A stretch of DNA of 64,000 nucleotides from Raillietiella orientalis (lineage: Eukaryota). The stretch lies in the NCBI GenBank assembly GCA_036172245.1, contig JAYWIR010000093.1:1-64000 (forward strand). Reading direction: 5' to 3'. The notes under the pieces were generated by a model. It saw only the letters and a program-made list of their open reading frames with translations. It made no database searches and had not been told where the DNA came from. Below, piece by piece: positions 2,536-59,489 of this stretch; position 1 is the first letter of the stretch, and each line of letters starts with the position of its first letter. The translations under genes were made by a program, and so were the position numbers.

Positions 2536-2545
2536 TCGTGGATGC

Positions 2546-4060
2546 CACCCGGACACGCCGGGGCGTTTATTAAAACATTTCAACGGTGAGTACATCACGT
2601 GGTTTAAGGCATCACTAACGGCCAACATTTTGCAGGACCTGCCGGGATGCTGGTACGCAGAGCAGCATGACTCTACTCAGCAATGGAAGGGGCTGGGGGA
2701 AAAACAAAAAAAAAAATGGACCAGTAAACCAAAAAAAAAGTTTTTGGAGGGAACGGAAGGGATCACAGTCCACTGGGGGGAGGGTCCACCCTCAGCAGGA
2801 TACCCTCGAGGTTTTTCTTCAAGCTTCCCAGCTTGGGCCATCAAATACCTCTCCGCAGGAAGCGAACAGCATATGGGATGACGTCCGTTGCGGTGGAATC
2901 TTCATCTCCGGCTTTACCCCAGGCCGCCACAATACCACGGATACAGCAAAGTTCTGCGAGGGCTGCGGCTGGCTTCAGGGTGTCCAACACGAAAAGAATA
3001 CTGTAAACATTCCTGGGGTGTCCGCGAACCGGTATCCCGAAGGCCGTTCCAAGACTATTCCAAAGAATCCGGAGGGCCGGGCAGTCAACAAGAAGGTGGG
3101 GGAGGGACTTCCGCTCTCTACATCTGGCACACGCAAAATTTACACTTCCCCGCATCCAGTGAAAGCGGCGTGCGTTGCAGGGTAGACCTCAAGCAAGCCA
3201 CAAAAGTGCCGACTGTTGCCAATCCAGGGGAGGAATCCTCGATCCAATTAGAACCGGAGGACACTTCAGTTTGCCCGACCGGATGCCGAGCAGCTCGCCC
3301 CTTCTTTTTGATCCACGCGGCTGGGCACTAGAAGTCGTAGCGTCTGTCAGCTCTCCCATGGTCCAGCTGCTCATCATTTTCTCTCTGCCTGCGATACGGC
3401 AGCAGACTTGCCACCTCGGCTTCGGGCTGTTGTGAAGCGCCCTCCGTAGGAAGGCATCGCCGTAGCAAGGGGTGTCCCTTCCGCCCACGTGCAACTCGCT
3501 GGAAATTGAAGAATTTCACGCAGAGTGCGGCAAGCGTAAAAGCCGACGCTCAGGCAGTTTCACGTCTCGTGTTTCCTCTTATTAATCTTCGCCCACGTGC
3601 CAGCGGTCTCCTCCAGCCATGCGTAGTAATTGACGGGGCTGCAGACCATCCAGCCGTTCTCCTTTGCCAAGGTGGACATGCGTCCATGGAGCAGGCCTTA
3701 TTTTCTCATCCTTCGGCCAGAGAACAGGGGATAAGAGGCAAGTCTTTGCGTCCTGGAGACACGGCTGGCAAGAAGGCAGACCGGAACGCACCAAGGGGTG
3801 CTCCACAACTTCGCTGCTTTGTCCAAGGTGTGCTATCGCAACTGGATTACCAAGCGCTCCAGCGTCAGGAGACCATGACCAGCGTCCCAACGCAAAGCGC
3901 ATAATTGCTTTAGACGCATTCTAGGTCTCTTGTTGCGCTTGAGGACGATTGGTAGTAGGTCCTTGGTTCTCTTTTTCAACTAAGGGGAAACGCGGCATTC
4001 AAAAAGTAGAAGGCGAAGGATGGGAGCAGCGAGCCCGGCTGCGCGGGACTATCTACTTTC
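2546..4060 (-). mobile_element. LINE 3' fragment (ORF2 C-terminal region, zinc finger, 3'UTR, terminal hairpin)
   Basis: ORF 2841-3155(-) CARCRERKSLPHLLVDC..LCCIRGIVAAW; ORF 3189-3494(-) WQVCCRIAGREK..PPLDWQ; terminal motif at 2546-2571. Right boundary approximate. Confidence 0.88.
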
Positions 4061-4069
4061 TTAGCGTAC

Positions 4070-5257
4070 TTCAAACGCCTATACATGTTCCTCTGCGGAC
4101 TGGCACTTCGGCGAGTAATTCAGCTGACCAGGACGAACTAGTAGATCTCCTGCCGGCCCGCGAATGGCACTTCCTGGTTAAAGGAAAACCTTGGCACGTG
4201 ATCGCAGATTGCGGAAGCGAGCCCGGAGTTGTAGCAGCGACTGCTGCTCTCCTTTTACAAGAGCCGCTCGCTGCAGGAGATCATCCTGCAGTCCGCCTTG
4301 AGTGCGTGGGCTAAGTGGACCTCCCTTGCCACGGCACTGTCGCACCACAGGGAGCACCAGAGCAGTGGCCAGCCGGCGTAATGGGAAGTCAGGTGCAGTA
4401 TCTCTAAAAGAGAGAGAGAGTAAGGTGGCTGGACCACAGGCCAGTTCAAAGATGCTGTGCCCCAATTGCCCCACCAAAGGAACTATAGTGCTGATGCGAG
4501 CTACTGAGCATCCCGATGGATTTTCTTTAGTGGCCCCTAGTGCTAAGGAATACCCGGACCCTCTCCTCTAAATAACAGTAGTCAGCGTTCCTGGAGTTGC
4601 ACTAGGGACTCCCCAGGAACGCCCGCCGATCTCAATGGACGAGGGGAGCTGTAAACCCAAATTGTGTCGGATGCGGGGAACGGGAAACCCTCTCGCACCT
4701 GCTTCTTGGCTGTGTTGCCCTCCGGCCGCTGTGATTGCGTTTCGCAACGACCCTAGGAGCACCCAAAAACAACCCCAAAGAAGTGTTGAAGCGCCTCTTT
4801 GTGTGCGACGTCCTTGAGCCTACCGTAGCCCTTGCAGCACTCTGCTGCCTACGTGGGATTGTGGCGGCGTGGAGAACCACCACTGGTGAACCGCAAGATA
4901 GGGACATCATCTGCTGCGCCCTGCGCTTCCTGAGGACGACAGCCGGATGGTCTTATCTGGAACGTATGCAGACTGAACTTGCCGACATCCTGGAAAGGTT
5001 GTAGAGGACGACCCCAGCGGAACGTGATCCCTTCCACAACCCCTGATTGCTTCTGTAAATAGTGTTTCTGTTTTTCTTTTTATTTGCTTTTTTCCCTCTT
5101 GCTGCCGAGTCGAGCTCTTCGGCCTGCGTGCTGGCTACTCGGCAAGTTCAGAACATTTACCAAAGCTTTTCTTGAACGCAGAAGTGCAATGGCCCTACAT
5201 ATGCATGTTTGTTTTTTATAGAAAAATAAACTCCCCGCCGCATCCGGATCTAAAAAA
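4070..5257 (+). mobile_element. LINE 3' fragment (ORF2 C-terminus and 3'UTR)
   Basis: ORF 4735-5004 LFVCDVLEPTVALAALCCLRGIVAAW..LADILERL*; T-rich 3'UTR; degenerate terminal motif at 5225-5249. Confidence 0.85.
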
Positions 5258-6620: not shown

Positions 6621-7005
6621 GTTAGTGAGGCCTGTTATTACGTTTTCTGTAGAGTTCCAATAAACGCTCCAAGCATACCTTGGTGGCAACCCCGAATCCT
6701 GCTGGTAGGCGGTGCAGAGAAAACTGGTCGCAGAATTTCTGTACTGACCGCTTAAAGTGGTCCCTTTCCTGGAATATCCGCGTTCTGAATCTCCGTATGA
6801 ACGCGCGGTGATGTTCCGCTGCGTCCAAGAGCTACAACTCGTCTCATGACAGACGCCACGCTAACGAGAGGGAACTCTTGTCGCGTGGATGAATCTCCAT
6901 CACGGTCAGGCGATTGTCGGACAGCTCGGACGTGAACTTGCCGCTCCTGACCACTCGAGGGCATAGGTGCTCGTCAAGGAACACTTAATCGATGGTGTTT
7001 TTTAT
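6621..7005 (-). mobile_element. LINE ORF2 fragment (APE C-terminus and linker)
   Basis: ORF 6622-6828(-) AEHHRAFIRRFRT..FKRSVQKFCDQFSLHRLPAGFG matches the family A linker in ORF 38960-40024. Confidence 0.82.
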
Positions 7006-13573: not shown

Positions 13574-13827
13574 TTTTCACACGGATATGCCGGGGCATTT
13601 ATTTAATAATAAAAATACAATAAATTTTCTCGTGGCGAGCCCAGGGGCTCATCACTCTAAGACAGCTTGCTTCGTGCCGGTGCGCAACCTGTGCCCTGTG
13701 CGCGTGGAGAGGTACTCTAGATCCTGTTCAAGATACTCACAAGCTGCGTCCTATCTGCGCTCAAATGGCGCCACTTGCACACGGTTCTCACAAAAAGGCG
13801 ACTCCAGTGTAAGGCGGAAGCTTGCAC
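13574..13827 (-). mobile_element. Family B 3'-end fragment
   Basis: Homologous to 34307-34660 (ctctagatcctgttca.., tggcgccacttgca, tccagtgtaaggcg); terminal hairpin at 13578-13603. Confidence 0.82.
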
Positions 13828-16148: not shown

Positions 16149-16149
16149 G

Positions 16150-22130: not shown

Positions 22131-25100
22131 TGACGGCAACCTGAACGAAGAGCTCAATAATGACACCTGCCAACGAGGTGGCACGAGAATCATCTGAGCG
22201 AGTTTTCTTTTTTTCATCCTAAATTGTCGCTCAGCACTGCGATAGAAACATTACCGTGCAGCATTTATCCAAATATTTCTTTTTTTCCTTCCTTCACAAC
22301 CACACATCTTGCTCCAATTTTGTCGGAAACTTTTGCTTTGCATGACGCGAAGGGTTCTGACATTGCCTTTACGTCCACCTTAGGTCAGTAGTTTGCAGAG
22401 GTCTTCGAATCCTCCAACTACAAATCTTTATTGTATTCTTCTCCATCATGGCAGTATGTAGTCTGCTTTCTTTCTACGGAGTTGCGAAATGTCTGACTGC
22501 CTGCACCTTGATTGTATGTGAATTTTCGTTGTGATTGTGAGCTTTTGCAGCCGAAACAAAAGCTTCCTTCTTGTTGTACGTTGCAGAAGCCACAGAAATG
22601 TGCAGCAGAAAAACAAAAGTTGCTTTTTTGGAAGCGACATCCTCAATTCTATTCAATTCCGAGAATACTGGTGCTCGGTTGTGTTTTCGGCATCACCACG
22701 TATTTTCTCTGCGGGACGTCTTGTGCGACAAAGTCTCGTAGCCTCTGTTATTTTAAAAGTTCGGGACACATTTTCAGCGCTTTCACGTTTTCTGTAATAG
22801 AGGCATTCCACCGAAGGGAATGTAGGGCATTATGGCGACCGATGCTCTATTTGTGCACAAACGCTGTTTGAGCACACTTGCCTTAAGCATGAACGACCGT
22901 GCCGTTCACGTACAGCAGCATCGCTTTTCGTTCCACTGTCTCTCAGACGGGTGCAAGCCCGCAGGGATGGCAACGCTTTCGCCACTTCTGCTGGACGGTG
23001 GAGAAACCGAACATCACTCGCATGATGTACTGGTACGTCATATGCTTTTCAGTACCGAGGACATAAGTGTTCTCTAGTCGGTGTTTAGAAATAGGTCCAA
23101 CAAACGCTGAGCTGAGAGAGCGTCCTGAAGCACCAATAGCGAACACTTTTGGCAATTAATGGACTTGAAGGTTCCAACGGTGTTTTCCCGCATACTTACG
23201 CGCCGCCACTTGCGTAGAGTTGTCCTGTCAGATCGCAGAGAATAAAGGTAGCCAACGTCGTTCTTGAAGTGCGGGCTTGTAGCCATTTGCAACACGTGTA
23301 CGCAACATCAGTGCATCCGGATCCCCTCTGTGCACCTCTTACACATCCATGACGTAGAGACAATACCTTCCACTAATGAGAAAGTTTATCTCCTGGTCAT
23401 ATTAGGGCGTTCATTAAAAGCAAATCACTTGAATACAGAAGTTTTTAACCGACGATTATAGCAAACGAAGATAGGGTCCACTGGCACGTAAGCGGAGACA
23501 ACACAAAGTCATGAAAACAGACGAGGGACTACAGAACAATTAAAATAGACAAACTGGGTGGGAAGGAGTAAACAAATTCAATAATGGTCAGCGTGTATTG
23601 GGATCAATACAAAAAATATCAGGAAAGTTACGGAACGAATAGGGATGGAGTAGCAGAAAAATGATGGAAAAAATTAATGAAAAGAAGGGACAAGGATCAA
23701 CGGATCTGCAATTTGCACTCTTTCATCAACTGGAGGTTGATGTCATTAATTTCTTTTTCGGTTTTCTTTTCCAGCTGTGGCCACCTTTCATTCTCCCTAT
23801 TGTATTCGTCTACCAGCATAATGGCGTCCTGATAACTGTAATAATTGCTCCCGTCGAGCGTTTCGGTGCGAAAAACCACCGCAGTACGTCCCGGTCGGTG
23901 ACATCGTGCACAAATACTGTTGACACGCTGTACGCCGCAGATCACAAGGAACGCTGCAGTAAAGAGCCTGTTGCAGAATTGACTCCGTCGAACCGTACTC
24001 CACAACCTGGACAAAAAACGCACCTTAAACTCGACGACACCTCTCGTTTTACTGGAATCTCCATCGGATGAAGAGCAGGAAAGCCTGAGGTCATACGAGG
24101 GAGAACAAGGAACCTCCTACACAATCGGCAGCGACAACAAGTTGCTATAGGGGAAATCATTGGCCCTACCGTTTTCCGACATCCTCGACGCTTGAAGCCT
24201 ATTGGTTCCATCTACCTAGAGAATGAGAAACTGTTAAGAATGCGCCTTTTTCTCCTTCTGACTTCTCTTTATCACGCTTCAGCACGCAGTACTGTTCTCC
24301 TAACATCAATCTTAAAAAACTAAAGCCTCTGAAATCTTTTTCGGATCTCCAAGACCTGTCTTCTGGCGAATGTGGATTGGGACGTTTTTGAAACATTTAA
24401 AAACAGCGGCTGCTTTCCTGCAGTTGCGGTAAGCTTGGAGGAAATGTACGTGGTAGATCAAAGCTTTGCATTCTTTCCCTCGGATTGTTCCCTGCAATGG
24501 AATGTGGCACGGCAGCTTGAAGAATTCATGGTGATGTTTCAGCGGCCTTGCAACCCGTCGCACGTTGGCATCTTCCTGTCTATCCAAAACGGTGACGGGC
24601 GCGCACGCTCCATCAGCCATTGCAGGTTGCCGTTTCGCTGCCTGACAGACAGCGGTCGATTTACGTGTTGCTGACATCGATCTAAGTGGCGCTGTTCAAC
24701 CTGTCACTACAAGAATTCACCCTTTGATTCAGCTGCGCTGTTAAAAGCGTTACGTTACAGTTTGACGTAGTTACTTTCGTCACTGAAAGCCCCATCCTGC
24801 TGCATTGCGAATGACGAATCTTCCACGGTGGATACATGTTTTCTCTCCTTCACGCTGAACTCTGTGCAGAGCAAACGCTGAATGCAAGAAGAGTTTTGAC
24901 GAAAGGAAAACAAAATCGCTTTGGCGGAAATTGACATGGACGATTGAACTTTCTAGAGGCATACCTTAATACAGCGTGATTCGCGGCCGACTGCTTGGCC
25001 TACATCCCATGGTATTCTGCGGCCTATCCCAAACAGTAGCGTAGGACTGCAGCCGCGGATCACGTATGCCTAAACTGTGCACTCTAGGATGCCCCACTGT

Positions 25101-32699: not shown

Positions 32700-33375
32700 C
32701 AAAGTTGGAAGCGGAAAAGTGCAGAGCACTCCTGTATTACCAGATCTCTGGGAGTGTGGATGCCAATTGTACAGAGTTTGCGGAATGGGTGACCTTTCTC
32801 CTCTTAATAATCGAGTGTGTTGCCTTCCGCCACATGTGGGATCGACTTTCGTCGTTCCTCAACATTACTGTGGGCGACCAAAAAACGTTTTTCGTCGCCT
32901 CCTGATGCGGGACTCTCTGCCAAGTGCCGCGTGTGTTGGAGTTCCCTGCTGCATATTTGGGATCCTGGATAAGTGGATCGCAACCAGGAGAGGACGGAAA
33001 AGTGGGAATGCCATCCACTGGGCAGCCATCTCCATGGAGAATGCTTCCCGTTGGTGTCGGCAAAAGAAAAATTCTGCCTGCATTTGTCCGCATTCAAAAC
33101 CGGATGCAGAGGTCTCCCCACGGCGTATCGTGATCTCTTCCATTCCCTACCCTCCTCATAAACATTGTTTTCCTAGGCGTTTTTCTTTTTTTTTCTGTTT
33201 TGCCTCACCCTTTGCCAGTAGAGAGGGTCTTACCGGCCTCAGGGTCAGTAAGAGCAGGTGCCTCAAGACAAAACTTTGTGTTCTTACTGAAAATTAACTT
33301 AAACGACAAGATATTATTATGAAATTTTAAATGTAAAATTTTAATAATAAAAACCCCGGCTTACCCGGATAAAAA
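32700..33375 (+). mobile_element. LINE 3' fragment
   Basis: CTEFAEWVTFLLLIIEC then PKNVFRRLLMRDSL..CCIFGILDKW..GNAIHWA; terminal motif at 33346-33375. Confidence 0.78.
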
Positions 33376-34306: not shown

Positions 34307-36422
34307 TTCACACCCGGATGTGCCGAGGCATTCATTTCTTTGAAATAAAATACATGACATTTCGCGTGGCGAACTCGAAGGTTCACCAAACCAAAACAGC
34401 TTGCTGGTTACCGGCTCCATGCCGGAGAGGTCCTTCCGATGCTCGGGGATGGGAAATAAAGAAAAACAAAAAGAAACAAACAGCTCAAATGTGGGGGGAA
34501 ACAAATGTTGTAGGGGTGGGAGGGCGGGGAAGGGATCACGATGCGCGTGGACAGGTCCTCTAGATCCTGTTCAGGATCCGCACAAGCTGAGTCCTTTCAG
34601 CGCCTAAGTGGCGCCACTTGCAGACACTGCGCGCGAAAAGGCAAGTCCAGTGTAAGGCGTTGCCGGTTGGCTGACGCCTTCTTCTGGTGGCGTTCCAAGC
34701 CGCCACTATTCCTCTGATGCAGCAGAGGAATGCTACACTACCGGGAGGGGACAAGGCGTCACTACAGAAGAGGCGCCTTAAAACGTCCTTTGGGCCGCAT
34801 CCGCGAAAGTCCAGGATCGCCGCGAGACGATCCCACAAAAAGCGGACTGCTCTGCAGTCAAGGAGAAGGTGGGGGAATGTTTCTTTTGCCCCACATCGGT
34901 CACAATCAGGATCTACAGCCCCCCGGGTGGTATGGTGCAGGCGTGCTTTGAATGGTTATCCCCAGAGTACCACAAGCAACGCCACATCCTGCCATTTCAG
35001 GGGGAGGGATGCACTGTTCCAGGACGCTGGGGGCCACTTCATCTCCTCCGGAGATAGTCCGAGTAGCTCGCCCCAGCGTCGAATTCCGTTGGGCGGGACA
35101 CTCGGCGTCGCAGCGTCAGCTAGCTGCCGAGATGTCCACGCCTTTATCGATTGTGTCCTGCCGCCTATGGTGCAGGACACGGTCCATTTCCCCTGCTCGC
35201 TACTGTCCCTGGCATTCACTAGGAAGGGCAGCACTGGGGCGAGGGGGGTTATCAAGGCCCACAGAAGCTTGTCGTGGGACTGCACGATTTCCTGCAGCGT
35301 CCAGCGGGCGTGCCTTTTCAGGCAAGTGTTCCTTGTGCCCGCCGGAACGTGGATCTTTTCCCTGGTGGAGACTGACTCGTGCAACCAGGCAGAGTAGTTC
35401 CTTGGGAGGCAGGAGATCCAGTCGTTCTCCCGAACCACAACGAAGATGCGTCGCAGCATAGAGCCACAGTGTGCTCTTCTGCAGACGCGCGCAGAAAGAA
35501 ACGACAAAAGTCCGCCGGATCCGCAGGCTCGTTGGGCCAGGAGGCGTGCTGGAACGCACCACGGCGTGTCCCACAATTCGGCCGCGAGGGCGAGAGTCCT
35601 GAATTCGAGTTGCAGTTCCATGCGCTCCAGCGTCAGTACGCCAAGTCCACCGTCCTTACGTGGAGCGCACAAGTCTTTGAGCCTCACACTGGAAATTTCT
35701 TTGCCCAAAAGGACTGTCCTTAGGAGGCCCGCTACTCTTTTTCGTATGAAATGAGGAACATGGCACACAAAAAGTAGGGGGCGAAGAAGCAGGGCCGCAG
35801 AAGCGTTCTGCATCGCGGCCCGTTCCTGCAAGTAAAACTTGCCGTCCCGGAACGGGCCGATTGCAAACTCCACCTTTTGGAGACGGTCGGACCAGGCTTC
35901 TGTCACGCAGAATTCCCCCAACGGAACGCCAAGGTACTTGAAGCACCTGCCCGTGGGGATCCCCAAGCGGATCCAGTCCGACCGTCCAGCACACGCCGAG
36001 CCGGTACAAGTTATGGACGACTTCGCCCTGTTCACATCCAGGCCCGTCCCGCGGCGCAGCAACTCGAAGAAGCCCTCGAGCGCACTCGCCGGGGTGGACC
36101 CGGGAAGCAACAGCAGAAGATCGTCTGCATAGGCCGACACGGCAAGCGTGCCGGCACACGAGCTCGGCAGGGTTGCCAGAGTTACCCTGTATGCCCTCAG
36201 CACCAACTCGAAGTAGATGCTGAAGAGCAAGGGGCTCAGGCTGTCACCCTGCCGGATACCGCGGCGCACTGGCATGCCGTACACGTGCCGGCCGCTGGAA
36301 CCAATATTTATTGACGCGTTGCGCCAGCAGGAGCGCAGGTAGGACTGGAGCACGGCCGGGAAACCCATGCGTTCCAGGAGCTCCAAAAGGAGTTCCTGGT
36401 CGACGCAGTCGAAAGCTTTACG
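34307..36422 (-). mobile_element. Family B element, 3' half (RT from KAFD onward, zinc finger, 3'UTR)
   Basis: ORF 34956-36386(-) RRGIRQGDSLSPLLF, AYADDLLL, FKYLGVP, PRKDGGLG; C-terminus in ORF 34560-34838; terminal hairpin. Confidence 0.95.
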
Positions 36423-36433
36423 CCGGCTAGAGC

Positions 36434-36455
36434 GGACGTGTTTCCTCGGTGCTCC
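36434..36455 (+). promoter_or_regulatory. Conserved 5' motif RGACGTG-N10-GCTCC (candidate internal promoter)
   Basis: Same motif and spacing at 2500-2521(-), 34272-34293(-), 45841-45862, 51119-51140, 59501-59522. Confidence 0.6.
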
Positions 36456-36516
36456 TCGTGCCGGGAACCGTCCCTAGGTGTAGGCTTCGTGTGTGGTGGT
36501 GGTCGATCAGGCAGCA

Positions 36517-38234
36517 ATGCCTGACGCGACCACCAGTACGTGTCAGGGGGCGGTGGCAACGTCGCCTCCTAAAGAAATGGAGTGCCAGGTGGCGGCGACA
36601 ACGTCGCCTCTAGAGAAGGTGGAGTGCCAGGGGGCGGCGGCAACGTCGCCTTCAGTGGCGAAAGAGGTGGGGGCGTCCGCCCCCACAAAACCGGTCCCCG
36701 CTGCAGCGCGGGCGTGGAGCGCCGTCGTGTCGGCGCCATCGCCTGCAGCCGCGGCGGAATTATCTGCCTATGTGGAAGAGGGGTATAACCCATCACTATT
36801 CTACAAGGTAGGAAATTTGTATTCATCTGAGAGTGCGCGCGCCTTTTCGAAGGGGATGCGCGCTCTCGATTTTAAAGAAGAGGAGCTCTGCGCTATGACC
36901 ATTCGTAGCGGGGGGCAGTACGTAGAGGTGATCTGCAAACATAGAGATCTGGCCCAACGTCTGCATAAAACCCCCGTGGTAATGGGGACACGCAGGCTCC
37001 TTCCCGTTACGGCGAACCACAGTATGGTGGTCCACCTTTTAGGAGTAACCGCGCGGATGCGGAAAGAACAGTTACGCGCCACGTTGGGAAAAGAAGGCAC
37101 GGTCCATGCAGTATGGACCGAGCCTAGTCCTTTCGAGGACTATACCACAGTTCAGTGCGGCCTTACGGCTGCCCGTGTAACCGTTCGGAAGGGCTCTACC
37201 CTTCCCCACAAACTGGTGGTCGGCGAAGAAAGCGTCGACCTCTGGTACGTGGGGAAGCCCAAATACTGTGGCTTCTGCAAAACGTCGGGACACCTCAAAA
37301 GGAGGTGCCCAACGTACAGTGCCTGGTATGCGGGACAATGGGCCACACGAAGGAAGTGTGTCCACAATCCGCTGTGCGCGTGGTTTCCGCGAGGAATCTA
37401 AAAAAACGCGCGCAACTGCTTCAGAAAAAACTGGCGGCGAAGGCTGCCGCTCAACCTGTGCCACCCACTCCCGTGGTCCAGGCCTCAGCCGACAGCACGG
37501 CAACGAATGCCGAAAAGATTGACAAAAGCGGTCAGGTGTTGGAATGGCAAGAAGTCACAGCGAAAAAGAAAAAAGAGTCGAAGAAAGAACGACGAATCGA
37601 AAAAAAGCTGGCCTACCAAAATAAAAAACAGCAGGTTAGCGAGAATTTAAAAGAATGCAGCGTCGTCGTGGAACGCGTGCCCGCCGAACGCCGCAAGGTA
37701 GAAATCGCTGCCACCGACGAGCAACCCACTGTTGAAAATGTCAACAGCGTGGGGAGCGAACCGGCGGAAGCATCCGTCATCGAGACCGTGATCGATGACG
37801 CCGCATTCGAGCGTGCGGCGGAGGAGCTGGCTGCATCGTTGCAGCCAGACCCCTCCAAGGCTGGCAAAAAGGCAGTGAGGCGTCCGGCCTCCACCGAGGA
37901 GTCGGTAACTTCCGACCCCGAAGCGCAGGCCGGAAACCAAGTTTCCATCTCCGCGGCACCCCGCCGGAAGGCTGGAAGGAAGTCCAGCAAACCCTGGAAA
38001 GCCCCTCTCCAGGTCGAAGGCGTGGAGATCACTTCCGACTGCGAGGGTGCCATGAGCGTGGGAGAATCCCGGGAATCGTCACTCGAGAGACCACCACGCA
38101 CAGACACGGAGGAGATGGAGGGGGTTGAAGCCGGAAAGGTACCCAAGGTGCCTGAGGAGGCTGAAACCCTAATGGTCATCTCACCCGCCTCGGAAGAGGC
38201 GGGTTCCCCCACACCGTCATCTTTCCGGCAGTAA
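36517..38234 (+). pseudogene. A1 ORF1, gag-like nucleic-acid-binding protein with two CCHC knuckles; frameshift near 37306
   Basis: CGFCKTSGHLKRRC and CLVCGTMGHTKEVC lie in different frames; 1-nt deletion relative to the copies at 43080 and 60330; basic then acidic low-complexity C-terminus. Confidence 0.9.
36541..36666 (+). repeat. Three 42-bp tandem repeats in the ORF1 N-terminus
   Basis: Units start at 36541, 36583, 36625: CQGAVATSPPKEME / CQVAATTSPLEKVE / CQGAAATSPSVAKE. Confidence 0.9.
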
Positions 38235-41200
38235 TGCCGGGAATCTCCTCCCGCCGTCGTCTGCGCATCGCCGTTTGGAACGTGAACGGCATGACAGACG
38301 CCGGCAGGAGACGAGACATGGCCGCCATTCTAGGATCGTTCGACCTTGTGCTGCTGCAGGAGATCCATGTGATCTCTGCAGAACAAGCGCAGGAGATCGA
38401 ACGCATCTACGGAGGGCGGCTGTGGTATCGGTGTGGAACATCGAGAAGCTGTGGTGTCGCCTACCTGCTTCGTCCCGCCATCGAGGCCGCCGCCCGTGGA
38501 GTTCGGTTCGAAGATCACGGTCGTGTCGGCCAGCTGACTCTCAGCTGGTCGCACTCGATCGACCTGATCGTTACGAACGTTTACGCCCCGAGCGGAGCGG
38601 ACCTGACGAAAAGGAAGGCCAGGAAAGAATTTTTCCTTGCCCTCCATCGCGACTGGTTGACCGAGGCAGGCGTGCGGAATGCCCATCTGGTTGCGGGCGA
38701 TTTTAACGTTCGTCTGAAACTGGACGGGCCGAATGACGAGCATGACCTGGTCAACGAGGTGTGCGCGGCGGTGCACACCTGTAATTTGTTGGCCAGTGTA
38801 CCAGGGATGGAGGACAACACCGATCACGTGTTCCTTGACGAGCACCAGTGCACTCGTGTGGGCAGGCGCTGCAAGTTGTTGTGCGAGTTGTCCGACCATC
38901 GACCAATCGTGATTGAAATCCATCCGCGCGACAGGGCCCCCCCCTCGTCAGCGTAGCGTTTGCCAGGGGACCGGCTGAAGCTCCCGGACTCGACGGAACA
39001 TCTCCGCACGTTTATACGGAGCTTTAGGATGCAGACACTTCAGGATTCGGACCGCTTCAAACGGTCGGTCCAGGAGTTCTGCGACCAGTTCCCTCTGCAC
39101 CGCCTACCTGCGGGATTTGGGGACGGGGTACGTAACGAACGAGCCTATCTGCAGGCTTGCCGTTACGCCAGGACCCCCGACATCCGCAGGCTGGCGGAAT
39201 ACAAAGCGGGAGCCGAGAGGCAAGCCTGGCAGTCAGTATCGGCCAGCTTGCTGGACGATCAGGGCCAGGAGCATTCGGCACCCGCTCAGATCCGCGGTCT
39301 GCTGCGGCGTTTTTATTCCTCCCTGTACGCAAGAACGACTCCCGAGCGGGATTTCTCACGAATCCTGCTTCCGGAAGGCGCTCCTGCGATCGGGGAAGAG
39401 GAGAAAAAGTCCCTCGACGAGTCTTTCACGATGGGCGAGATCATCTCGGCCATCGGAAAGCTCAAGAGGCGAAAGGCTCCAGGGGAGGAAGGCATGTCCG
39501 CGGAGTTTTATCAAACTTTCGCGGCTGAGCTAACCCCCCTGGTACATCAACTCACCTTGCTGATACGCGAGACAGGTGACGTTCCCGCCCCGTTTCGTTC
39601 GGCAAAGGTGCGGCTTCTCCCTAAGGGAGGAGATCTGAGGAGCATGAACAACTGGCGTCCCATCACAATAGTGAATGGGGATGCCAAGTTGATAGCTAAG
39701 GTTTGGGCTGAGCGTTTGGGACGGGTTGCAAACGCCTTTATCAGCCCAGAACAGACGTATGCTGTTCCGGGGCGAAGCATGGAGGCGAACCTGTTCCACG
39801 CTTCCACCTGGCTAGAACTCCAACACGAAAGGGGCTTGATGCGCACCGGGAATTCCGGTGAGTCCGTCAGTCATGCGACGGATGGTCGGATGGGTGAGGG
39901 AGCACTTGCGGTCGCTGTCGACTTGCGTAAAGCATTCGACACCGTCGACCAGAATCTCCTGCTGGAACTTTTGGAACGCTTGAGCTTCCCGGCCTCCTTA
40001 TTGGCCTATCTGCGCTCTAGCTAGCGCGATGCGCTAATCAATGTTACTTTCAGCGGGCAGACCGTGCATGGCGTACCGGTGCGACGTGGAATCCGGCAAG
40101 GAGACAGCCTGAGCCCCTTGCTCTCCAGTACCTACTTTGAGTTGGTACTGAAAGCGTTCAGGGAAACTCTGGCGCACCTGCCACATGAATGCGCCGGAAC
40201 GCCTGCGGTTTCAGCATATGCGGACGACCTCCTGCTACTGCTCCCTATGTCCACCCCGGCTTCGGCGGTCGAGAAGTTCTTCGACCTGCTGAATCGAAGA
40301 ACCGGGCTTACGGTAAACAGTGCGAAGTCGTCCGTGATGCCAGTTGGTGCGGCGTGGGCAGGGCAGTAGGACTGGGTCCGTTTGGGGATCCCCACGGTGA
40401 GGTACTTCAAGTACCTTGGTGTGCCGTTGGGGGACTACTCCCCTGCGGAATCGTGGTCCCGCTGCCTTCAAAAAGTAGAGACGGCTATCGGCCCGTTCCG
40501 AGGCGGCAGGTTTTTCCTGCCTGAACGGGCCGCGGTTTGGAACATGTTCGCGGCTCCTCTCCTCCGTTCCCTGTTGTTTGTTTGCCCCCCCACAGAGAGG
40601 ATCAAAAAGCGGACGTAGGACCTCCTCCGTATCGCCCTTTGGGGCAACGGGAGGCCCCGAGTCCGCCTGAAGGACTTGTGCGCTCCGCGTCGGGACGGTG
40701 GTCTCGGCCTCCTGACATTGGAGCGGCTGGAGCTGCAGCTCCAGTTCCGGATTTTGGCACTTGTGCCGGAGTTGTGGTGTACCTGTTGGTGCGTCCCTGC
40801 ACGTCTCCTCCTTCTGCAAGCCACCGGCAAGACGGGACTTACGTCGTTTCTTGCACTCCATCGAAGCCGCATCAACCGATGTGGGCTTCAGCTACGGAGG
40901 GTGGCTGCGCTGACTAGGAAAAATCAAGGATGGATCACTTGTCTCCCCGCGAACGGTAGTGCCTGGTTGCAGGAAACCGTTCGTACGTGGGGACAGTTCG
41001 GCATGCAACCCTCCCATCAGGAATGAAGGTTCTTGTTTGGGTGTTACAGAAGTTGCACGCTCCGTGAGATCCTGGAGGATCCTAAGAAGAGAGCGTGGTC
41101 AGGAAGAACCCCCCTCGCTGCTGCGCTGGGCTCCCTAGTAGAACATCAGGACAGCGATGTTGCGGCGAAGTGAAAGGTTACAATAAAAATCTCCGGGAAG

Positions 41201-41818
41201 GAGAAGAAGCAGAGAGAGTGGAAGACGAGCCAGCTAACTGATGCTGCGTCCCCGAGTGCGCCTCCTAATGGACTTCTGCGCTGGGGAGCGCTGCTGGATG
41301 TTCCGATTGAACATCTGAAGTGGCCCCCGATTCTTATGAACACTTCCATCCTCCCCCTAAAATGGCAGGAGTGGGCATTCCTGTTGCAGCACTGGGGACT
41401 CCCCTGCAACGCCCGTCGACACCACTGGACCTGGGGAGTGGTGGATCCCAATTGTGTAAGGTGCGGGGAACGGGAGTCCCTCCCCCACCTCCTAGTGGAT
41501 TGTGTTGCCCTTCGGCCCCTTTGGTTCCGCTTTGCCGCGGCCATCGGTATCCCTTGCGGCAACCCCAGGGTCGCACTAAAAGCCTTCTTCGTTGCCGACG
41601 CCCTGCGGCCAGCGTCCTCGATAGCAGCCTTGTGCAGCCTTCGTGGGATCGTCGCCGCCTGGAGCACGGCGACGGGAGGACCTAGCGATCAGGAAGCCAA
41701 CCAGTGCGCCTCCGAATTCCTGAGGAGGGCGTCGCGATGGCCCCACCTGGATGTTGACAACAAACAAGAGCTTGCCAGCATCCTGAGAGGGATGATGCGG
41801 CCCCAGCAGCAACAGTGA
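38234..41818 (+). pseudogene. A1 ORF2: APE endonuclease, reverse transcriptase, C-terminal zinc finger; several premature stops
   Basis: WNVNG, LQE, GDFN, SDH; KAPG, NWRPIT, KAFDTVD, GIRQGDSLSP, YADD, KYLG; CVRCGERESLPHLLVDC. In-frame stops end at 38956, 40024, 40369, 40618, 41026. Confidence 0.95.
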
Positions 41819-42010
41819 TCCCTTCCCGTTCCCTCCCACCCTTTGCTTTTTTTTTTTGTTTAGTTTTTTTTTGTTTTTCCCCTTTCCCCTGCTGCCTTAG
41901 TGGACCGTACCGGTCTAGAAACCGGTGAATTGGCAGCCGCCGTGGTTCTTAGCTTCTGGCTGGAGCATTGCCACAGCCATTAATAATTTGTTTACAAAGT
42001 TTATTTTTTT

Positions 42011-42041
42011 AATAAACGACCCGGAGAAATCCGGGTGAAAA
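42011..42041 (+). terminator. 3'-terminal AATAAA plus CCCGG/CCGGG hairpin (element 3'-end signal)
   Basis: aataaa-cga-cccgg-agaaat-ccggg-tgaaaa; equivalent motif at nine other element ends. Confidence 0.75.
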
Positions 42042-42055
42042 TCGAAAGCTTTACG

Positions 42056-43434: not shown

Positions 43435-45827
43435 TTATTTCCCGGTTGTGGCAAGACGTTTATTAATAATGCCTGCTGGAAACTGTGTTCCTAGGTAAGG
43501 GGAACAGAAGATGGAGAGGAGGGTTCCCGGCACTCAGGCAGGGCACACTCAAAGTTCGGAACGGGTGGGAAAGCACAATAAAGAAATAAACAGGAAGCAA
43601 GGGCAAGGACAGGGGTATGCAAATCAACCGTTCCTATTCTAAGAACCGGCGGTGAATGCCGCCGATCTCCGTCCACACTTCCGCTTGAAGATGTGGCCAC
43701 CTGGCAGCCATTTGCAGGTTGCAGGCTGCATTCCTTGCCGTGACCTCACGACGGCGCGGACGCAGCAGACGATTACGACGACCGCTCCAAGAGAAAGACC
43801 GCCACGCGTATACAAGCGGTGCATCCATTCCTTTGCGGTGTGTCCGGGGTGCAGGAGCGCTGAAGACAGCCGCTGCCACAGCTCCTGGAGGGCACCGCAT
43901 TCAAATAGAAATGCGGAAGCGATTCCACCGCTCCGAATGTTGCGCAGTTCGGGGACGCACCTCTCCCGGAAACGAGGTGCGCGCGCACGTTGCAGTACAA
44001 ACCCCAATGCACCAGCACAAAAGCGTCCTGTTTCCAACGAAGGGGGAAGACTGTCGTGTCCAAGCACGCAGAAGGGACCACAAGTTCTACGGTGGGCACC
44101 CCGAGGATCTCGCTCCACAAGAAAAGTCCCTTGGCACGAAGGCGAGGAGTGGCAGTGTCTGTCAGCTCGCAAGTCCTCCAGCCGCCCAGCAGTCAGGTTT
44201 CGCCTGCGATTTTGCAAACTACCTCCCACCTCGCCTACAGGTCACTGTCGTCTTCCACCATGAATGCACACAGTGCTTCGGCGAGTGGCGTAGCGGCTAG
44301 GTGTGTCCACTGGTTCTCGTCTTCAAGCACCTCCCCCACAAAACAATATGGGAAAGGTTCACGCAACGGAGTTCCAAACGGGACACATCCTGTTGCGCTG
44401 CCCAGGACAATAAGGCTTCCTGCCTCCAGGCGTTGAAGTAAGTCGGCCGGCAGGAGATCCACGCATGCTTTCCCATAAGCGAGGAGAGCTGCTTCAGTGG
44501 GAAGCCGAATTTTCTCTGGGCGCACTCCGTGCGCAGATGCAACGCCCATAGTCCGTCGCCACCCGTGCAGCGCCGCAGCAGCAGCCGCGCCGGAGCACAC
44601 CACGAAGTAGTCCAGAGCTGCGCACAAGGTGCCAGCATGCGGAACTGCACTAGCAGTCCGATCCGCTCCAGCGTCAGGATGCCCAATCCTGCATCCCGCC
44701 GAGAAGCCGCCAAGTCCTTGAGGCGTATCCTAGACCTCGCCGGTCCTCACAAGACGTTTCGCAACAGGCGTTGCGCCCGAAGCTTAGCCGAGTAGGGAGG
44801 GGGACAAACAAAAAAGAGGGCACGGAGGAAGGGGGCAAAGAAAATGTTGCACACGAAGGCCAGTTCCAACAGGAGGAACCTGCCGCCTTGGAACAGGCCC
44901 TGAGCAGTGTTCGCCTTGCGAAGGCAGTCCGACTACGCTTCTGATGGACAGAAGGCGCCCAAAGAAACGCCAAGGTACTTAAAGCACCTGCATGTTGGGA
45001 TCCCCAGGCGGATCCAATCGGACTGCTCATCCCACGTAGAGACAACCGGTACAACGGTTGATTTCGTCCTGACGAAAAGACCCCCTCCCCGACGAATGAG
45101 CTTAAAGAAGTCCTCGAGCCTGGACGCCTGGGTGGACATGGGCAGCAAAAGAAGAATGTCGTAAGAATAGGGGGCCATGGCCGAAGTTCCCGGACAGAAG
45201 CTCGGCAGGATGGCCAGCGTCAGCTTGCACGCACTCAGCACCAACTCAAAGAAGATGCTGAAGGGCAAGGGGATTAAGCTGTCTCCCTGCTTGATACTTC
45301 GCCATATGGGAACGCCGTACACGTTGCGCCCGCTGAAAGAGATACAGCATAACGCGTGGCGCCAGTAGGAGCGCAAGTAGGCGATGAGGTGCGTCGGGAG
45401 GCCAAAGCGTGCTAGAAGCTCCAGAAGGAGGTCCTGGTTTACGCTGTCGAACGCTTAGCAGAGATCGACGGCGACTGCTAAGGTGCCTGGCGTTCCGTCG
45501 TGCCTCGAGCACCGCCACTTCCCTTGGCAGCGGCGCTTTCGCCTGCCTGGCTCTTCTGCGCCACGCGCTGCTGCAACTCGAACCATGTTCGTGCGAAGAA
45601 GAGATTCGCGTCCATGGACCTCCCCGGAACAGCATACGTCTGCTCCGGACTTACCAAGGACTCTGCGAGTCTCCCTAGCCGCGCGACCCAAAGTTAGGAG
45701 AACGACTTGTCGTCCGAATTCATCAAGGACGCAGTTGTTAAGGTGACGCAAATCCCCGCCTTTCGGCAGGAGCCGCTCGTTTGCTGATCCGAAAGATGCA
45801 GGAACATCTCCGGTCTCCCGCATCAGC
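43435..45827 (-). mobile_element. Family C copy C1 (RT to 3' end; catalytic YADD mutated to YSYD)
   Basis: LMRETGDVP, IKQGDSL..APYSYDILLLL, FKYLGV; zinc-finger region; terminal motif at 43435-43464. Confidence 0.93.
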
Positions 45828-49085: not shown

Positions 49086-49597
49086 TCCCCAACGAAACGT
49101 TTTGGTGCGACCCTCCCTATATCGGTCGGCAGTATCCCCTGAGACGTTCTGAGACCCCTCTTCATGCGAGACACCCTGCCATTAGCCCCAACCCTGGCAG
49201 CGCTCTGCTGCCTCCGAGGGATTGTGGCCGCCTGGAGCGCAGCCAACAGAGGAAGCAGCGACAGGGACCCCATCGTACACGCAGGTCGCTACCTGCGAAT
49301 CGCGATCGGCTGGTCCCATATGGGAACTATGACGAGGGACCTCGAAGGCATCCTGGAAAGGTTGATCTCTCCCTCCGGCAGGCTGTGATCCCTTCCCGGC
49401 CCCCCAAATAGTTTCTTTCTGTTATTTCATTTATTTTTCTTTTTGTTTTACCATCCCCACCTCGCTGCCGAGGAGAATCAAGTTAATCTGCTAACCGGCT
49501 TTCTGGCAGGTCCCAGGAACTATTGGCCGTACTGGGGCCTAGTACCGCAAATGTACTGTGTTTTTTTAATGAACGCTTCGGCGTGACCGGGTGAAAA
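49086..49597 (+). mobile_element. LINE 3'-end fragment fused to D (internal deletion or separate truncated insertion)
   Basis: LAALCCLRGIVAAW..LEGILERL (ORF 49164-49388); terminal motif at 49568-49597. Confidence 0.85.
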
Positions 49598-52260: not shown

Positions 52261-55200
52261 TTATTACCCGGTTGCGCCGGGACGTTTATTATAATATCAA
52301 CTGGGAACTGTGTTCCCAGGCAAGGGGAACAGAAAATAGGGAGTAGATTTCCGGGAACGCACTCCGGGCACACTTAAAGTTCGGAACGGGAGGTGGTGGG
52401 ACAATGAATAAATAAATTGGTTGGAAGGGCGGGGACAGGGGTATACCGTCTAACCGTTCCTATTCACAGAACCGGCGGTGAAAGCCGCCGATCTCCGTCC
52501 TCACTTCTGCTCCAATCTAATGGCCACCCGGAAACCATTTGCAGGTTGCAGGATGCGGTGTCGGGGACCACTGTTGGGACTGCTCGCATCTGCAATACGT
52601 GGCGGGCCCTGACAATGGCGCGGACGCAGCAGATGATTGCGACGACCGCTCCAAGAGAAAGTCCGCCACGCGTGTAGAAGCGGCGCATCCAATCCAGTGA
52701 GGTGTGTCCAGGGTGCAGGAGCGCTGAAGACAGCCGCTGCCACAGCTCCTGCAGGGCACCGCACTCAAACAGCAAATGCGGAAGCGATTCCACCGCTCCG
52801 CATTTGGCACAGTTCGGGGACGCAACTCCCCCGGAAATCAGGTGCGCCCGCAGGTTGCAGTACAAACCCCAATGCACCAGCACAAAAGCGTCCTGCTTCC
52901 ACCGAAGGGGGAAGAGAGTCGCGTCCAAACACGCAGAAGGGACCACAAGTTCATCGGTGGGCACCCCGAGGAGCTCACACCACCGGAGAAGACCCTTTGC
53001 AAGAATGCGAGGTGTGGCAGCGTCTGCCACTTCGCAATTCCTCCAACCGCTCAGCAGTCGGGTTTCGCCTGCGATTTCGCAAGTGATCTCCCACCTCGCC
53101 GGCAGGTCACTATCATCTCGCACCATCAGTGCACACAGTGCTTCGGCGAGTGGCGTCGCGGCTAGGCGTGTCCATTGGTCCTGGTCTTCCAGCACCTTCT
53201 CCACTGGACAGTATGGGGAAAGTTTCACGCAACGGAGTTCCAAACGGGACACATCCTGTTGCGCTGCCCAGGACGATAAGGCTTTCTGCCTTCAGGCGTT
53301 GAAGTTCGTCAGCCGGCAGGAGATCCACTCATGCTTTCCCAGAAGCGTGGCGAGCTGCTTCAAAGGGAAGCCGAATCCTCTCTGGGCGCGCTCCGTGCGC
53401 AGATGCAACGAACGTAGTCCGTCGCCACCCGTGCAGCGCCGCAGTAGCAGCCGCGCTGGAGCACACCAAGGAGTCGTCAAAGGCTGGGCGCAAAGAGCCA
53501 GCATGCGGAACTGCACTAGCAGTCCGATCCGCTCCAGCGTCAGCATGCCCAATCCTGCATCCCGCCGAGGAGCCGCCAAGTCCTTCAGGCGTATCCTGAA
53601 CCACGCCGGTCCCCACACGGCGTTACGCAACAGGCGTTGCGCCCGGCACTTAGCCGAGTAGGGAGGGGAACAAACCAAAAAGAGGGGACGGAGGAGGGGG
53701 GCAACGAAAATGTTCCACACGAATGCCTATTCCGACAGGAGAAATCTGCTGCCTTGGAACGGGCCCAGAGCGGTCTCGGCCTTGTGAATGCAGTCCTAAC
53801 ACGCTTCTGCGGGACAGAAGGCGCCCAAGGGAACGCCGAGGTAATTCAAGCACCTGCCCGTGGGGATCCCCAGGCGGATCCAGTCGGACTGTTCCTCCCA
53901 CGTACAGCCATCCGGTACAACGGTTCATTTCGTCCTGTTGACGCTCAGGCCCGCACCGCGACGAATGAGCTCGAAGAAGTCCTCGAGCCTGGTCGCCGGG
54001 GTGGACATGGGCAGCAGCAGAAGGTCGTCAGCATAGGCGGCCACGGCCGGTGTTCCCGGGCAGGAGCTCGGCAGGTTGGCCAGCGTCAGCCTGTACGCCC
54101 TCAGCACCAACTCAAAGAAGATGCTAAAGAGCAGGGGGCTTCAGCTGTCTCCCTGCCTGATACCCCGCCGTATGGGAATGCCGTACAAGTGGAGCCCGCT
54201 GAAAGAGATACAGCATAACGCGTGGCGCCAGCAGGAGCGCAAGTAGGCGATGACGTGGCTCGGGAGGCCTAGGCGTCCCAGAAGCTCCAGAAGAAGGTCC
54301 TGGTTTACGCTGTCGAACGCTTTGCAGAGATCGACGGCGACCGCTAAGGCTCCCGGCGTTTTATCGTCCCTTGAACACCGCCGCTTTCCTTTGTAAGCGG
54401 CGATTTCGGCTGCCTGGCTCTGCTGCGCCATGCACTGCTACAACTCGAATCATGTTCGCGCGAAGAAGAGATTCGCGTCCATGGTCCGCCCCGGAACAGC
54501 ATACGTCTGCTTTGGGCTTACCAAGGACTCTGCGATTCTCCCCAGGCGCGCGACCCATAGCCTGGAGAACAACTTGACGTCCGAATTCACCAATGTGATG
54601 GGACGCCAGTTGCTGAGATGGCGCAAATCACCGCCTTCCGGCAGGAGCCGCACGTTTGCTGAGCGGAAAGAAGCGGAAACATCTCCCTTCTCACGCATCA
54701 GCGAGGAAAGGCTTAGCACCAGGGGGACGAGCTCCGCCGCGAAGCACTGAAAGAACTCCGCGGGCAGGCCATCCTCCCCAGGCGCCTCACGCATCTTCAG
54801 GCCCGCTACGGCAGTAGATACTTCTTCCGTCCTGAAGGCCCAATCCAATCTGGCGCGTTCCTCCTCGTCGATAGCAGGATTGCCCGTCAGAAGAAGCAGC
54901 TCGGAGAGACTGCTTTCCGTGGGCTCCTCCGCGTACAACGAGGAGTAGTAGCGCTTGACTACGTGGTGTACTTCGGCTGCAGCCGAGCATTCCTGGCCAG
55001 CGTCATCGAGCAGAAAAGCCGATCCAGACTGTCAAACCTGGCGCTCGGCCCTAGCCTTCTACTCCGCCAGACGCCGGACGTCCGGGCATCGTGCAAAGGT
55101 ACGCGCCTGCAGATAGGATCTGCTGTTCGCGACACCCTCCCCGAAGCCGCGGGTAAGCAGGTGCAAGGAAAACCGGCAGCAGGACTCGCGGACCGATCTT

Positions 55201-57374: not shown

Positions 57375-59489
57375 TTCACACCCGGATGTGCCGGGGCATT
57401 TATTTCATTGAAATAAAATTACATCGAAATGTCGCGTGGCGAACCCGAAGGTTCACCACTCCAAAACAGCTTCCTGGTTACCGGCTCCATGCCGGAGAGG
57501 TCCTTCCGATGCGCGGGGATGGGAAATAAAGAAAAACAAAAAGAAACAAAAAGCTCAAATGTGGGGGGGAACAAATGTTGTAGGGGTGGGAGGGCGGGAA
57601 GGGATCACGATGCGCGTGGACAGGTCCTCTAGATCCTGTTCAGGATCCGCACAAGCTGAGTCCTTTCAGCGCCTAAGTGGCGCCACTTGCAGACACTGCG
57701 CGCGAAAAGGCAAGTCCAGTGTAAGGCGTTGCCGGTTGGCTGACGCCTTCTTCTGGTGGCGTTCCAAGCCGCCACTATTCCTCTGATGCAGCAGAGGAAT
57801 GCTACACTACCGGGAGGGGACAAGGCGTCACTACAGAAGAGGCGCCTTAAAACGTCCTTGGGGCCGCATCCGCGCAAGTCCAGGATCGCCGTAAGACGAT
57901 CCCATAAAGGGCGGATGGCACTGCGCTAAATGAGAAAGGGGGGGAAAGTTTCTTTTTCCCCAAACCGGTCACAATTAGGATCCACAGCCCCCCGGGTGGT
58001 ATGGTGCAGGCGTGCTTTGAATGGACATCTTCAGAGTACCACAAGCAACGCCACATCCTGCCATTTAAGGGGGAGGGACCCACTGTACCAGGACGCTGGG
58101 GGCCACTTCATCTCCTCCGGAGATAGTCCGAGTAGCTCGCCCCAGCGTTGAATTCCGTGGGGCGGGACACTCGGCGTCGCAGCGTCCGCTGGCTGAGGAG
58201 ATGTCCACGCCTTTAACGGTTGTGTCCTTCCGTTTACGGTGCAGAAAATGGTCCATTTCCCCAGCTCCCTACTGTCCTTAACATTGATAAGGAAGGGCAG
58301 CACTGGGGCAAGAGGGGTTATCAAGGACCACATAAGCTTTTCGTGGGACTGCACGATCTTCTGCAGCGCCCAGCGCGCATGCATTTTAAGCAAGTGTTCT
58401 TCGTGCCCGCCGGTACGTAGATCTTTTCCCAGGTGGACACTGACTCGTGCAACAATCGCCAGTAGTTCCCTGGGAGGCAGGAGATCCAGGCGTTCTCATG
58501 TACCACAACGTCCATCCGACGCAGGAGAAAGCCGCCGTGTGCTTCTCTGCAGTTGCGCGCAAGCAGAAACGACAAAAGTCCGCCGAATCTGTAGGCTCGT
58601 TGGGCCAGGAGGCGTGCTGGAACGCACCAAGGCGTGTCCCACAATTCGGTTGCGAGGGCGAGAGTCCTGAATCGCAGTTGGAGTTCCATGCGCTCCAGCG
58701 TAAGTACGCAGAGTCCTCCGTTCTTACCTGGAGCGCACAAATCTTTGAGCCTCACATGGGACTTCCCTATGCCCCAAAGGACTATCCTCAGAAGGCCCGC
58801 TGCTCGTTTTCGAGTAAAATAAGGGGCCAGGCAAACAAAAAGTAGGGGGCGAAGGAGGGGGGCCGCAAACGCGTCACACACCACGGCCCGTTCCTGCAAG
58901 TAGAACTTGCTTTCTTGGAATGGACCTATCGCCAACGCTGTTTTTTAAAGACGGTCGGACAAGGCTTCTGCTGCGCAGAAGTCCACCGACGGAACGTCAA
59001 GGTACTTGAAGCACCTGCCCATGGGCATCCCCAAGCGGATCCAGTCCGACCGTCCAGCCCACGCCCAACCGACAATGACCATGGACGACTTCGCCCTGTT
59101 TACCTCCAGGCCCGTCCCGCGGCGCAACAACTTGAAGAAGTCCTCGAGCGCACTCGCCGGGGTGGACCCGGGAAGCAGCAGCAGAGATCGTCTGCATAGG
59201 CCGACACGGCAGGCGTTCCGGCACACGAGCTCGGCAGAGTTGCCAGAGTTACCCTGTATGCCCTCAGTACCAACTCGAAGTAGATGCTGAAGAGCAAGGG
59301 GTTCAGGCTGTCACCCTGGCGTATGCCGGGGCGCACTGGCACGCCGTACACGTGCCGGCCGCTGAAAGCAACATTTATGTACGCGTTGCGCCAGCAGGAG
59401 CGCAGGTAACACCGGAGCACGGACGGGAAACCCATGCGTTCCAGGAGCTCCAGAAGGAGATCCTGGTCGACGCAGTCCAATGCTTTACG
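57375..59489 (-). mobile_element. Family B copy B2, 3' half (paralog of 34307-36422)
   Basis: DCVDQ..GIRQGDSLNP..AYADDL; C-terminal peptide identical to that in ORF 34560-34838; terminal hairpin at 57375-57404. Confidence 0.95.

Follow-up and report, generated by a model that had tools for sequence, protein, structure and literature searches.

The design described here is the structured 3' end of stringent LINEs, which is already known and also occurs inside the L1 clade. In the monocot '1a' L1-clade lineage (LINE1-1_ZM with ZmSINE2/3), a conserved 3' hairpin with compensatory changes was read as stringent recognition; its tail of ~45 bases showed a divergence of 0.144 compared to 0.570 overall, and L1-1_CR and SINEX-3_CR of Chlamydomonas likewise have their tail in common (Ohshima, 2012, PMC3472496). 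Table 1 of PMC3472496 also records L1-clade families without a 3' repeat, 9 among the 233 of flowering plants and 5 among the 15 of green algae. The locus analysed here resembles these tails in that the elements are of the L1 superfamily or similar to it, their 3' end is far better conserved than the rest, and this end includes a hairpin. However, the monocot and Chlamydomonas tails finish with poly(A) and are shared with SINEs, neither of which was seen here in 64 kb, and they are characterized by a UCU loop and a CGAG flank, whereas the features here are AAUAAA and a CCCGG/CCGGG stem. A string search for AATAAA or AAUAAA in most of the supplementary text of PMC3472496, blind to strings interrupted by a line break or a gap, gave no match.

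In the L2 clade, ORF2p of UnaL2 (eel) and of ZfL2-1 and ZfL2-2 (zebrafish) binds a 3' stem-loop that is required for retrotransposition, with the stem recognized in a general manner and the loop giving cognate specificity (PMC4176376). The likeness lies in a short stem-loop near the end, whose stem is common to related LINEs and whose loops differ. In contrast to the present elements, those of the L2 clade belong to a different clade and have no AAUAAA in the module, and the role of their stem-loop is experimental, whereas ours is read from sequence alone. Furthermore, the Tx1-clade LINEs Tx1L, Keno, and Tx1-Mar (the last with SINEU) insert repeatedly into one site of another mobile element (PMC4494074). 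Here, two elements (D1 and D2) lie in tandem at one 14-bp site in the RT gene of another LINE, and any Tx1 membership of these elements is putative. Unlike the copies here, the SINEU passengers carry poly(A) tails (Kojima, 2015, PMC4494074). An AAUAAA fused to a GC hairpin and a single 6-base tail without repeats was not found described in a narrow literature search. A brown-alga centromere preprint was considered as a parallel and set aside as not relevant, being about LTR elements.

A 3'-terminal module of LINE copies in the window

The window, the 64-kb stretch of eukaryotic DNA that was analysed, is dominated by a nest of LINE retrotransposons: tblastn with the window's own ORF1, APE, and RT pieces recovered more than 20 LINE fragments on both strands, many of them interrupting others. 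The initial annotation had reported ten element 3' ends in which AAT(A/G)AA is followed by a hairpin, and all ten read as described. Each consists of AAT(A/G)AA, a 3-4-base spacer, a 5-bp GC stem closing a 5-6-base loop, and about six further bases, with CCCGG-like 5' and CCGGG-like 3' arms around the loop. The hexamer is AATAAA at eight of these ten sites and AATGAA at the other two (34307-34336 and 49568-49597); counted in the 5-bp stem register, the loop is five bases long and reaches six only in 42011-42041. The loop sequences given earlier (cgtgt, catat, cttac, cacat, agaaat, cgtga, cgcaa) were also correct.

Exact CCCGG-N4-7-CCGGG was observed four times in the window as compared to 0.28 expected, a number that none of 100 shuffles reached. 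A scan of all 95 AATRAA sites in the window for a perfect hairpin behind them recovered seven module sites together with five unrelated hairpins, and exposed an eleventh module at 6659-6689 (+). We then trained a covariance model on the 11 copies, whose own scores of 35-51 bits are therefore high by construction, and applied it to both strands of the window. Besides the 11 copies and one site of 19.9 bits, a probable but weak and decayed twelfth module, nothing scored above 12.7 bits. Thus, the module is not scattered through the window, and this check of whether the motif occurs away from element ends, made in the window only, upheld the earlier observation. The features are collected in Table 1.

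Table 1. Modules, carrier groups, and landmarks of the complete element D1, with positions counted from the first base of the window
Feature	Position	Strand	Details
D1, complete LINE copy	36423..42041	+	From Pfam, tblastn map, translations, and tandem repeats
Left 14-bp target-site duplication	36409..36422	+	TCGAAAGCTTTACG
Right 14-bp target-site duplication	42042..42055	+	TCGAAAGCTTTACG, directly after ...CCGGGTGAAAA
Stop block of D1	41815..41826	+	GTGATCCCTTCC; holds the ORF2 stop codon
Other stop blocks	2755-2766, 5024-5035, 6478-6489, 33130-33141, 34528-34539, 49385-49396, 57597-57608		
Group A	2542, 49568, 6659		67-70% alike
Group A module	2542..2571	-	Stem CCCGG/CCGGG, loop CGTGT, tail TGGCAT; adjoins 5' region of next minus-strand LINE; its ORF2 C-terminal half at 3201-4030 (-) (tblastn)
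Group A module	49568..49597	+	AATGAA, stem TTCGG/CCGGG with two G-U pairs, loop CGTGA, tail TGAAAA
Group A module, new	6659..6689	+	Stem CCAAG/CTTGG, loop CATAC, tail TGGCAA; host homology from 6690
Group B	34307, 57375, 13574		34307 and 57375 97% alike
Group B module	34307..34336	-	AATGAA, stem CTCGG/CCGGG with one G-U pair, loop CACAT, tail TGTGAA; adjoins 5' region of next minus-strand LINE; RT upstream at 34956-36473 (-) (Pfam)
Group B module	57375..57404	-	Perfect stem, loop CACAT, tail TGTGAA; 3' UTR 97% identical to 34307 copy
Group B module, ~250-base 5'-truncated copy	13574..13603	-	3' arm CCGTG (one mismatch), tail TGAAAA
Group C	43435, 52261		73% alike
Group C module	52261..52290	-	Perfect stem, loop CGCAA, tail TAATAA; host stops at 52260
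Group C module, decayed	43435..43464	-	5' arm CTTGC, tail AAATAA
Groups D, E, F			Single copy each
Group D module (element D1)	42011..42041	+	AATAAA, CG, 7-bp stem ACCCGGA/TCCGGGT, GAAA loop, GAAAA; terminus 42041
Group E module	33346..33375	+	3' arm CCGGA (one mismatch), loop CTTAC, tail TAAAAA; stop block at 33130
Group F module, degenerate	5225..5254	+	Arms CCCGC/CCGGA, tail TCTAAA plus three more A; preceded by ORF2 C-terminal piece 4037-4471 (+) (tblastn)
Probable decayed twelfth module, weak	23382..23424	-	AATGAA, CG, CCCTAA...CCAGG; 19.9 bits, E 0.12

Same-strand ORF2 coding sequence lies 0.2-0.7 kb upstream of nine of the 11 modules in the tblastn map. The two modules without an ORF2 piece upstream are those of the truncated group B copy and of the group E copy, which has a stop block and for which tblastn gave no RT match upstream. 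Read in the other direction, ten ORF2 C-termini are visible: seven run into a module, one leaves the window, and in the other two a further insertion interrupts the sequence within ~40-130 bases past the stop; none of the ten is followed by poly(A). The co-location with LINE and SINE ends that had been proposed as a check came out one-sided within the 64-kb window, with all 11 modules in LINE copies and none joined to a SINE or other non-LINE element. No Rfam model matched the window at its gathering score, so that no histone-type 3' stem-loop or curated RNA family was detected there, and none matched region 41800-42060 at E up to 1. Contigs of one DNA sequencing run, in which 0.10 of the sampled words were present, aligned to the window as 396 short, mostly diverged pieces (195 of them less than 90% alike), which were uninformative on the hairpin and on empty sites. 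A single such contig matches from 49568 on and has other sequence upstream, an anecdotal observation.

Termini of the module-bearing elements

The group D module closes a complete element, D1, in which a 5' region with a 42-bp tandem repeat is followed by ORF1 with a CCHC knuckle, APE, RT, a zf-RVT-like CCHC, a 3' UTR of ~226 bases, and the module. The duplicated TCGAAAGCTTTACG is the antisense of the coding site for 'RKAFD' in the RT of a minus-strand group B element, as seen by comparison with uninterrupted RT genes; this comparison and the flanking duplication place D1 at 36423-42041 as an insertion in the B element. The duplication fixes the end of D1 at six bases past the stem, with four A's and no poly(A). 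A second D copy, D2, has its 5' end at 42056 and is 95.5% identical to D1 across 787 bases. This identity indicates that the D family was recently active, which makes an age-related loss of a tail unlikely.

The same spacing was found at other junctions. At 42042, 6690, 43434, and 52260, host or target homology picks up again exactly six bases beyond the stem, and at 49597 the interval is five to six bases. The homology between the two 97%-alike group B copies extends to ten bases after the stem, so that the B tail measures 6-10 bases. The five defined junctions demonstrate a fixed terminus without a long homopolymer tail. UnaL2, ZfL2-1, and ZfL2-2 carry short tandem repeats behind their stem-loop; the elements here have a single 6-base tail instead. 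The claim that these elements end in the hairpin in place of poly(A) was borne out: none of the 11 termini adjoins a run of at least eight A or T, and a long poly(A) is also missing from a young copy, D1, with its 95.5%-identical companion.

Hexamer end and terminus are separated by a constant 24-25 bases in all 11 copies, and the tails of ten of them finish in 2-6 A. Cleavage after AAUAAA usually takes place within 10-30 bases, a range that includes this distance. The terminus thus falls where cleavage directed by AAUAAA would fall, and the fixed end could come from RNA processing alone. The module would in that case be a signal for RNA 3'-end formation or stability, with AAUAAA directing cleavage ~24 bases on and the hairpin defining or protecting the end, while reverse transcription starts passively as the terminal A's anneal to the nick; such a signal would be useful for a mobile element unable to carry downstream signals. 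The state of the hexamer, a perfect AATAAA in nine of the 11 copies and AATGAA in two, fits this explanation, as do its constant distance from the terminus and the closing A's. However, polyadenylated RNA combined with passive priming predicts variable A-tails in young copies, and none has one. We consider this main alternative unlikely, though credible, and an RNA-end signal can coexist with stringent recognition.

The junctions also bear on the idea that the palindrome acts as DNA, either as a protein-binding site or as a landing mark that draws the next insertion. Three or four of the 11 termini (2542, 34307, 42041, and perhaps 57375) directly adjoin the 5' region of a same-strand LINE, as a landing mark would predict. 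Against this, the D1/D2 junction is explained by successive use of a single 14-bp target, the duplication lying between the two elements, the remaining termini lie in varied hosts, and the CCAAG/CTTGG variant preserves pairing and not sequence. We regard a function of this kind as extremely unlikely.

Conservation of the module and pairing of its stem

When the 365 bases preceding each module were compared by BLAST, the 11 copies fell into six groups, A to F. With a group B copy as tblastn query, the ORF2 C-terminal halves were 31-58% identical in protein. An invariant block spanning the ORF2 stop codon, GTGATCYCTTCC, is common to eight copies of groups A, B, D, E, and F, and a search of the window for it returned nine matches as compared to 0.63 expected. 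Downstream of the block, these five groups have first a C-rich tract and next a T-rich one, and their terminus lies 205-245 bases from the block. Group C alone is without the stop block and the T-rich frame, yet it has the module. Because five of the six groups have the stop block, the T-rich tract, and the UTR length in common, we judge the groups, on their sequences, to be branches of one lineage and not unrelated families. The earlier description of the carriers as divergent LINE families holds for the distance between their ORF2 halves, but it has to be narrowed to branches that have a stop block and a UTR architecture in common.

We next compared the groups along their 3' regions, using 40 between-group pairs from which the truncated group B copy (B_13580) was excluded and in which the register of group F is one base off. 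Mean identity was 0.67 in the module, and 0.48-0.52 in the ORF2 end and in each 60-base slice of the UTR, while shuffled sequences gave a baseline of 0.43-0.45. The upstream 3' UTRs had been called unalignable; their identity is indeed close to that of shuffles, but eight copies carry the GTGATCYCTTCC block. The module and the stop block are apparently two islands that selection has kept in the 3' region.

By eye, each group also has a small hairpin in the middle of the UTR, ~90-110 bases before the terminus (e.g., 41915-41935 and 2620-2650 (-)); its loop contains CTGCG in three copies (2542, 6659, and 5225), and stems elsewhere read ACCGGT/ACCGGT in D and CCGGC/GCCGG in B.

Pairing within the stem was analysed in two registers. 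In the stem-set register, which was chosen by the analyst, 50 of 55 stem cells pair (Watson-Crick or G-U) and seven of 11 stems are fully paired; the remaining four, 13574-13603, 33346-33375, 43435-43464, and 5225-5254, have one or two mismatches. Two sites had been flagged as degenerate, and both are mismatched, although mismatches extend to these four stems. In the model-fitted alignment, which misplaces two copies having an extra base, 48 of 55 cells pair. Covariation was not above shuffles in the model-fitted alignment (0.233 compared to 0.204, reached by 148 of 500 shuffles), whereas in the stem-set register the covariation sum was 78 compared to 48.6 and was reached by 0.58% of 5000 shuffles, which ignore relatedness. 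Cells changed on both sides numbered two, with 0.36 expected (3.7% of shuffles, relatedness again ignored). Both double changes sit in 6659-6689, where four substitutions leave pairing perfect, and they count as a single event. The covariation check is accordingly divided: the outcome depends on the register, and the double changes come from one copy only.

Other features of the stem and loop point in different directions. Group D has an altered loop length, with two extra pairs formed and a GAAA loop closed. G-U pairs occupy six cells in three copies and C-A mismatches two cells, with no significant strand bias, so that C-to-T decay may account for the G-U pairs. The loop sequence is itself constrained, fitting C-R-Y-R-W in nine of 11 copies, so the earlier statement that the stem is kept while the loops vary is right for the stem and too strong for the loops. 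Across copies the stem is conserved mostly as sequence, so that a DNA-level palindrome or plain descent is formally possible. Moreover, the copies are partly non-independent, as the two group C copies are perhaps one duplicated event and two group B copies are 97% alike. Within the window, a structural reading of the stem is reasonable and modestly supported.

A module without function could be common to the groups by descent or by recent exchange of 3' ends, through template switching or recombination, and look kept because it is short and GC-rich. The single UTR architecture that is clear in five of six groups would fit such a history, as would the weak formal covariation and the presence of copies that are duplicates of one another. 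However, the UTR has drifted nearly to random identity (0.48-0.52 compared to 0.43-0.45) while the module is still at 0.67, group C keeps the module without the common stop block, and 6659-6689 still pairs after its four substitutions. Functionless inheritance of the module is thus very unlikely.

A second helix, in which an upstream U-rich run pairs with AAUAAA, was also considered. With at least six of seven bases paired, it occurs in five of 11 copies, 57375 included, and at five of 52 control AATAAA sites. It is found in groups B, D, and F, and was rejected as part of the shared core because groups A and C are without it.

Carrier lineage, proposed mechanism, and the nest

Pfam identified Exo_endo_phos (2e-13; the N-terminal APE) and RVT_1 (1.3e-15) in ORF2, and zf-RVT at 24.5 bits (E 4.5e-5), under its 27.5 cut-off. 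A C-terminal CX2CX7HX4C was present in three of eight C-terminal read-backs, the rest being decayed, and ORF1 has one CCHC knuckle in translation, with a weak Pfam hint. These APE, RT, and CCHC features fit the L1 superfamily, and 'L1/Tx1-like' is a plausible label as far as the sequence goes. Poly(A) at the 3' end, a usual though not universal trait of that superfamily, is absent from these copies. Searches of a protein atlas and of PDB sequences yielded no clade assignment; the PDB search gave Bombyx R2 at 8.7e-13 and human L1 ORF2p at 1.5e-10, values that do not separate L1 and R2.

At E up to 1e-3, six protein relatives were found, the best (P0001) with 66% identity. A metagenome scan with the RT alignment brought up 80 loci of distant LINEs with 24-37% identity, and the covariance model found no match to the module in these loci (316,786 bases) at E up to 1. 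Thus, the module appears to be specific to this lineage and no general LINE trait. In the other genomes compared, no look-alike stretches were found.

The elements stop at a fixed point, poly(A) is missing even from a family that was recently active, and the module is confined to LINE ends and better conserved than the UTR; together with the precedents in the monocot L1-clade lineage and the L2 clade, these findings lead us to propose that the module is probably a stringent-type 3' recognition signal that fixes the start of reverse transcription. The carriers would be one APE-type, L1-superfamily-like LINE lineage, divided within this nest into at least six groups. The 3'-terminal cis-signal would comprise AAUAAA, the 3-4-base spacer, the 5-bp GC hairpin, and the 6-base tail ending in A. 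The hairpin would form in the element RNA and be bound as a handle by the ORF2 protein, and this binding would set the active site of the reverse transcriptase at a fixed position six bases downstream. Target-primed reverse transcription would consequently begin at a defined nucleotide and give new copies without poly(A). With the terminus 24-25 bases beyond AATAAA, the module may also take part in forming the RNA 3' end, and AAUAAA, as a putative poly(A) signal, probably sets or helps to set the RNA 3' end there.

A more elaborate version, which we hold to be quite doubtful, is that the AAUAAA-hairpin-6-base unit is a self-contained dual signal that makes an RNA end independent of the flank and hands this exact end to ORF2p. 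The host poly(A) signal would be used while the tail is dispensable, the groups could partly cross-mobilise one another, and template jumping from end to end could produce head-to-tail arrays. Partial cross-mobilisation of this sort is conceivable because the groups have the stem in common and their loops are slightly different. Free cross-family mobilisation, by contrast, is disfavoured, since the loop gives cognate specificity in the L2 clade (PMC4176376) and the loops here differ both between and within groups.

If the module is a stringent recognition signal, this L1-superfamily-like lineage would provide a clean natural example of a 3' end that is fixed by a structured signal and not by poly(A), and it would be relevant to the view that the L1 group began with stringent recognition and relaxed it only afterwards (Ohshima, 2012, PMC3472496). 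The 30-base module marks true 3' ends precisely, and can as such be used to dissect the nested LINE arrays of this genome and to look for SINE or retrogene passengers.

Several observations concern the nest itself. D-type LINEs occupy the antisense 'RKAFD' RT site of other LINEs at 36409-36422 and 42042-42055 and also at 59476-59489, where a third D-like 5' end adjoins the motif in a second group B copy. Both group C copies lie between CGTCGT and GGAACG, at an identical position and with identical orientation, in two D-like ORF1 regions that have diverged from each other (junctions 43434/43435 and 52260/52261), and the composite 42841-45828 matches 51665-54703 at 84%. Because of the same host position, 43435 and 52261 may be one insertion that was duplicated with its host, or they may represent a second site-specific family. 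Head-to-tail arrays, in which a terminus is followed by a same-strand LINE 5' region, involve the 2542, 34307, 42041, and perhaps 57375 termini (3-4 of 11), and several of the array 5' ends have GACGTGTTTYYTYGG..CTCC in common; either repeated insertion into one target or template jumping from end to end could account for the arrays.

Outside the nest, the stretch from 16000 to 33000 has a GC content of 41-49%, compared to 55-61% in the nest, and contains only old LINE fragments. Pfam assigned no credible family to any of 22 ORFs taken from 7-33 kb. The longest A run of the window, 14 A at 27970-27983, is the only long one; it lies in this lower-GC part, where it could represent the remaining tail of a retroposon of the poly(A) type, unrelated to the LINEs described here. 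Within the nest, both D copies contain 2.7 units of a 42-bp repeat across their 5' region and the start of ORF1 (36540-36651 and 42173-42284).
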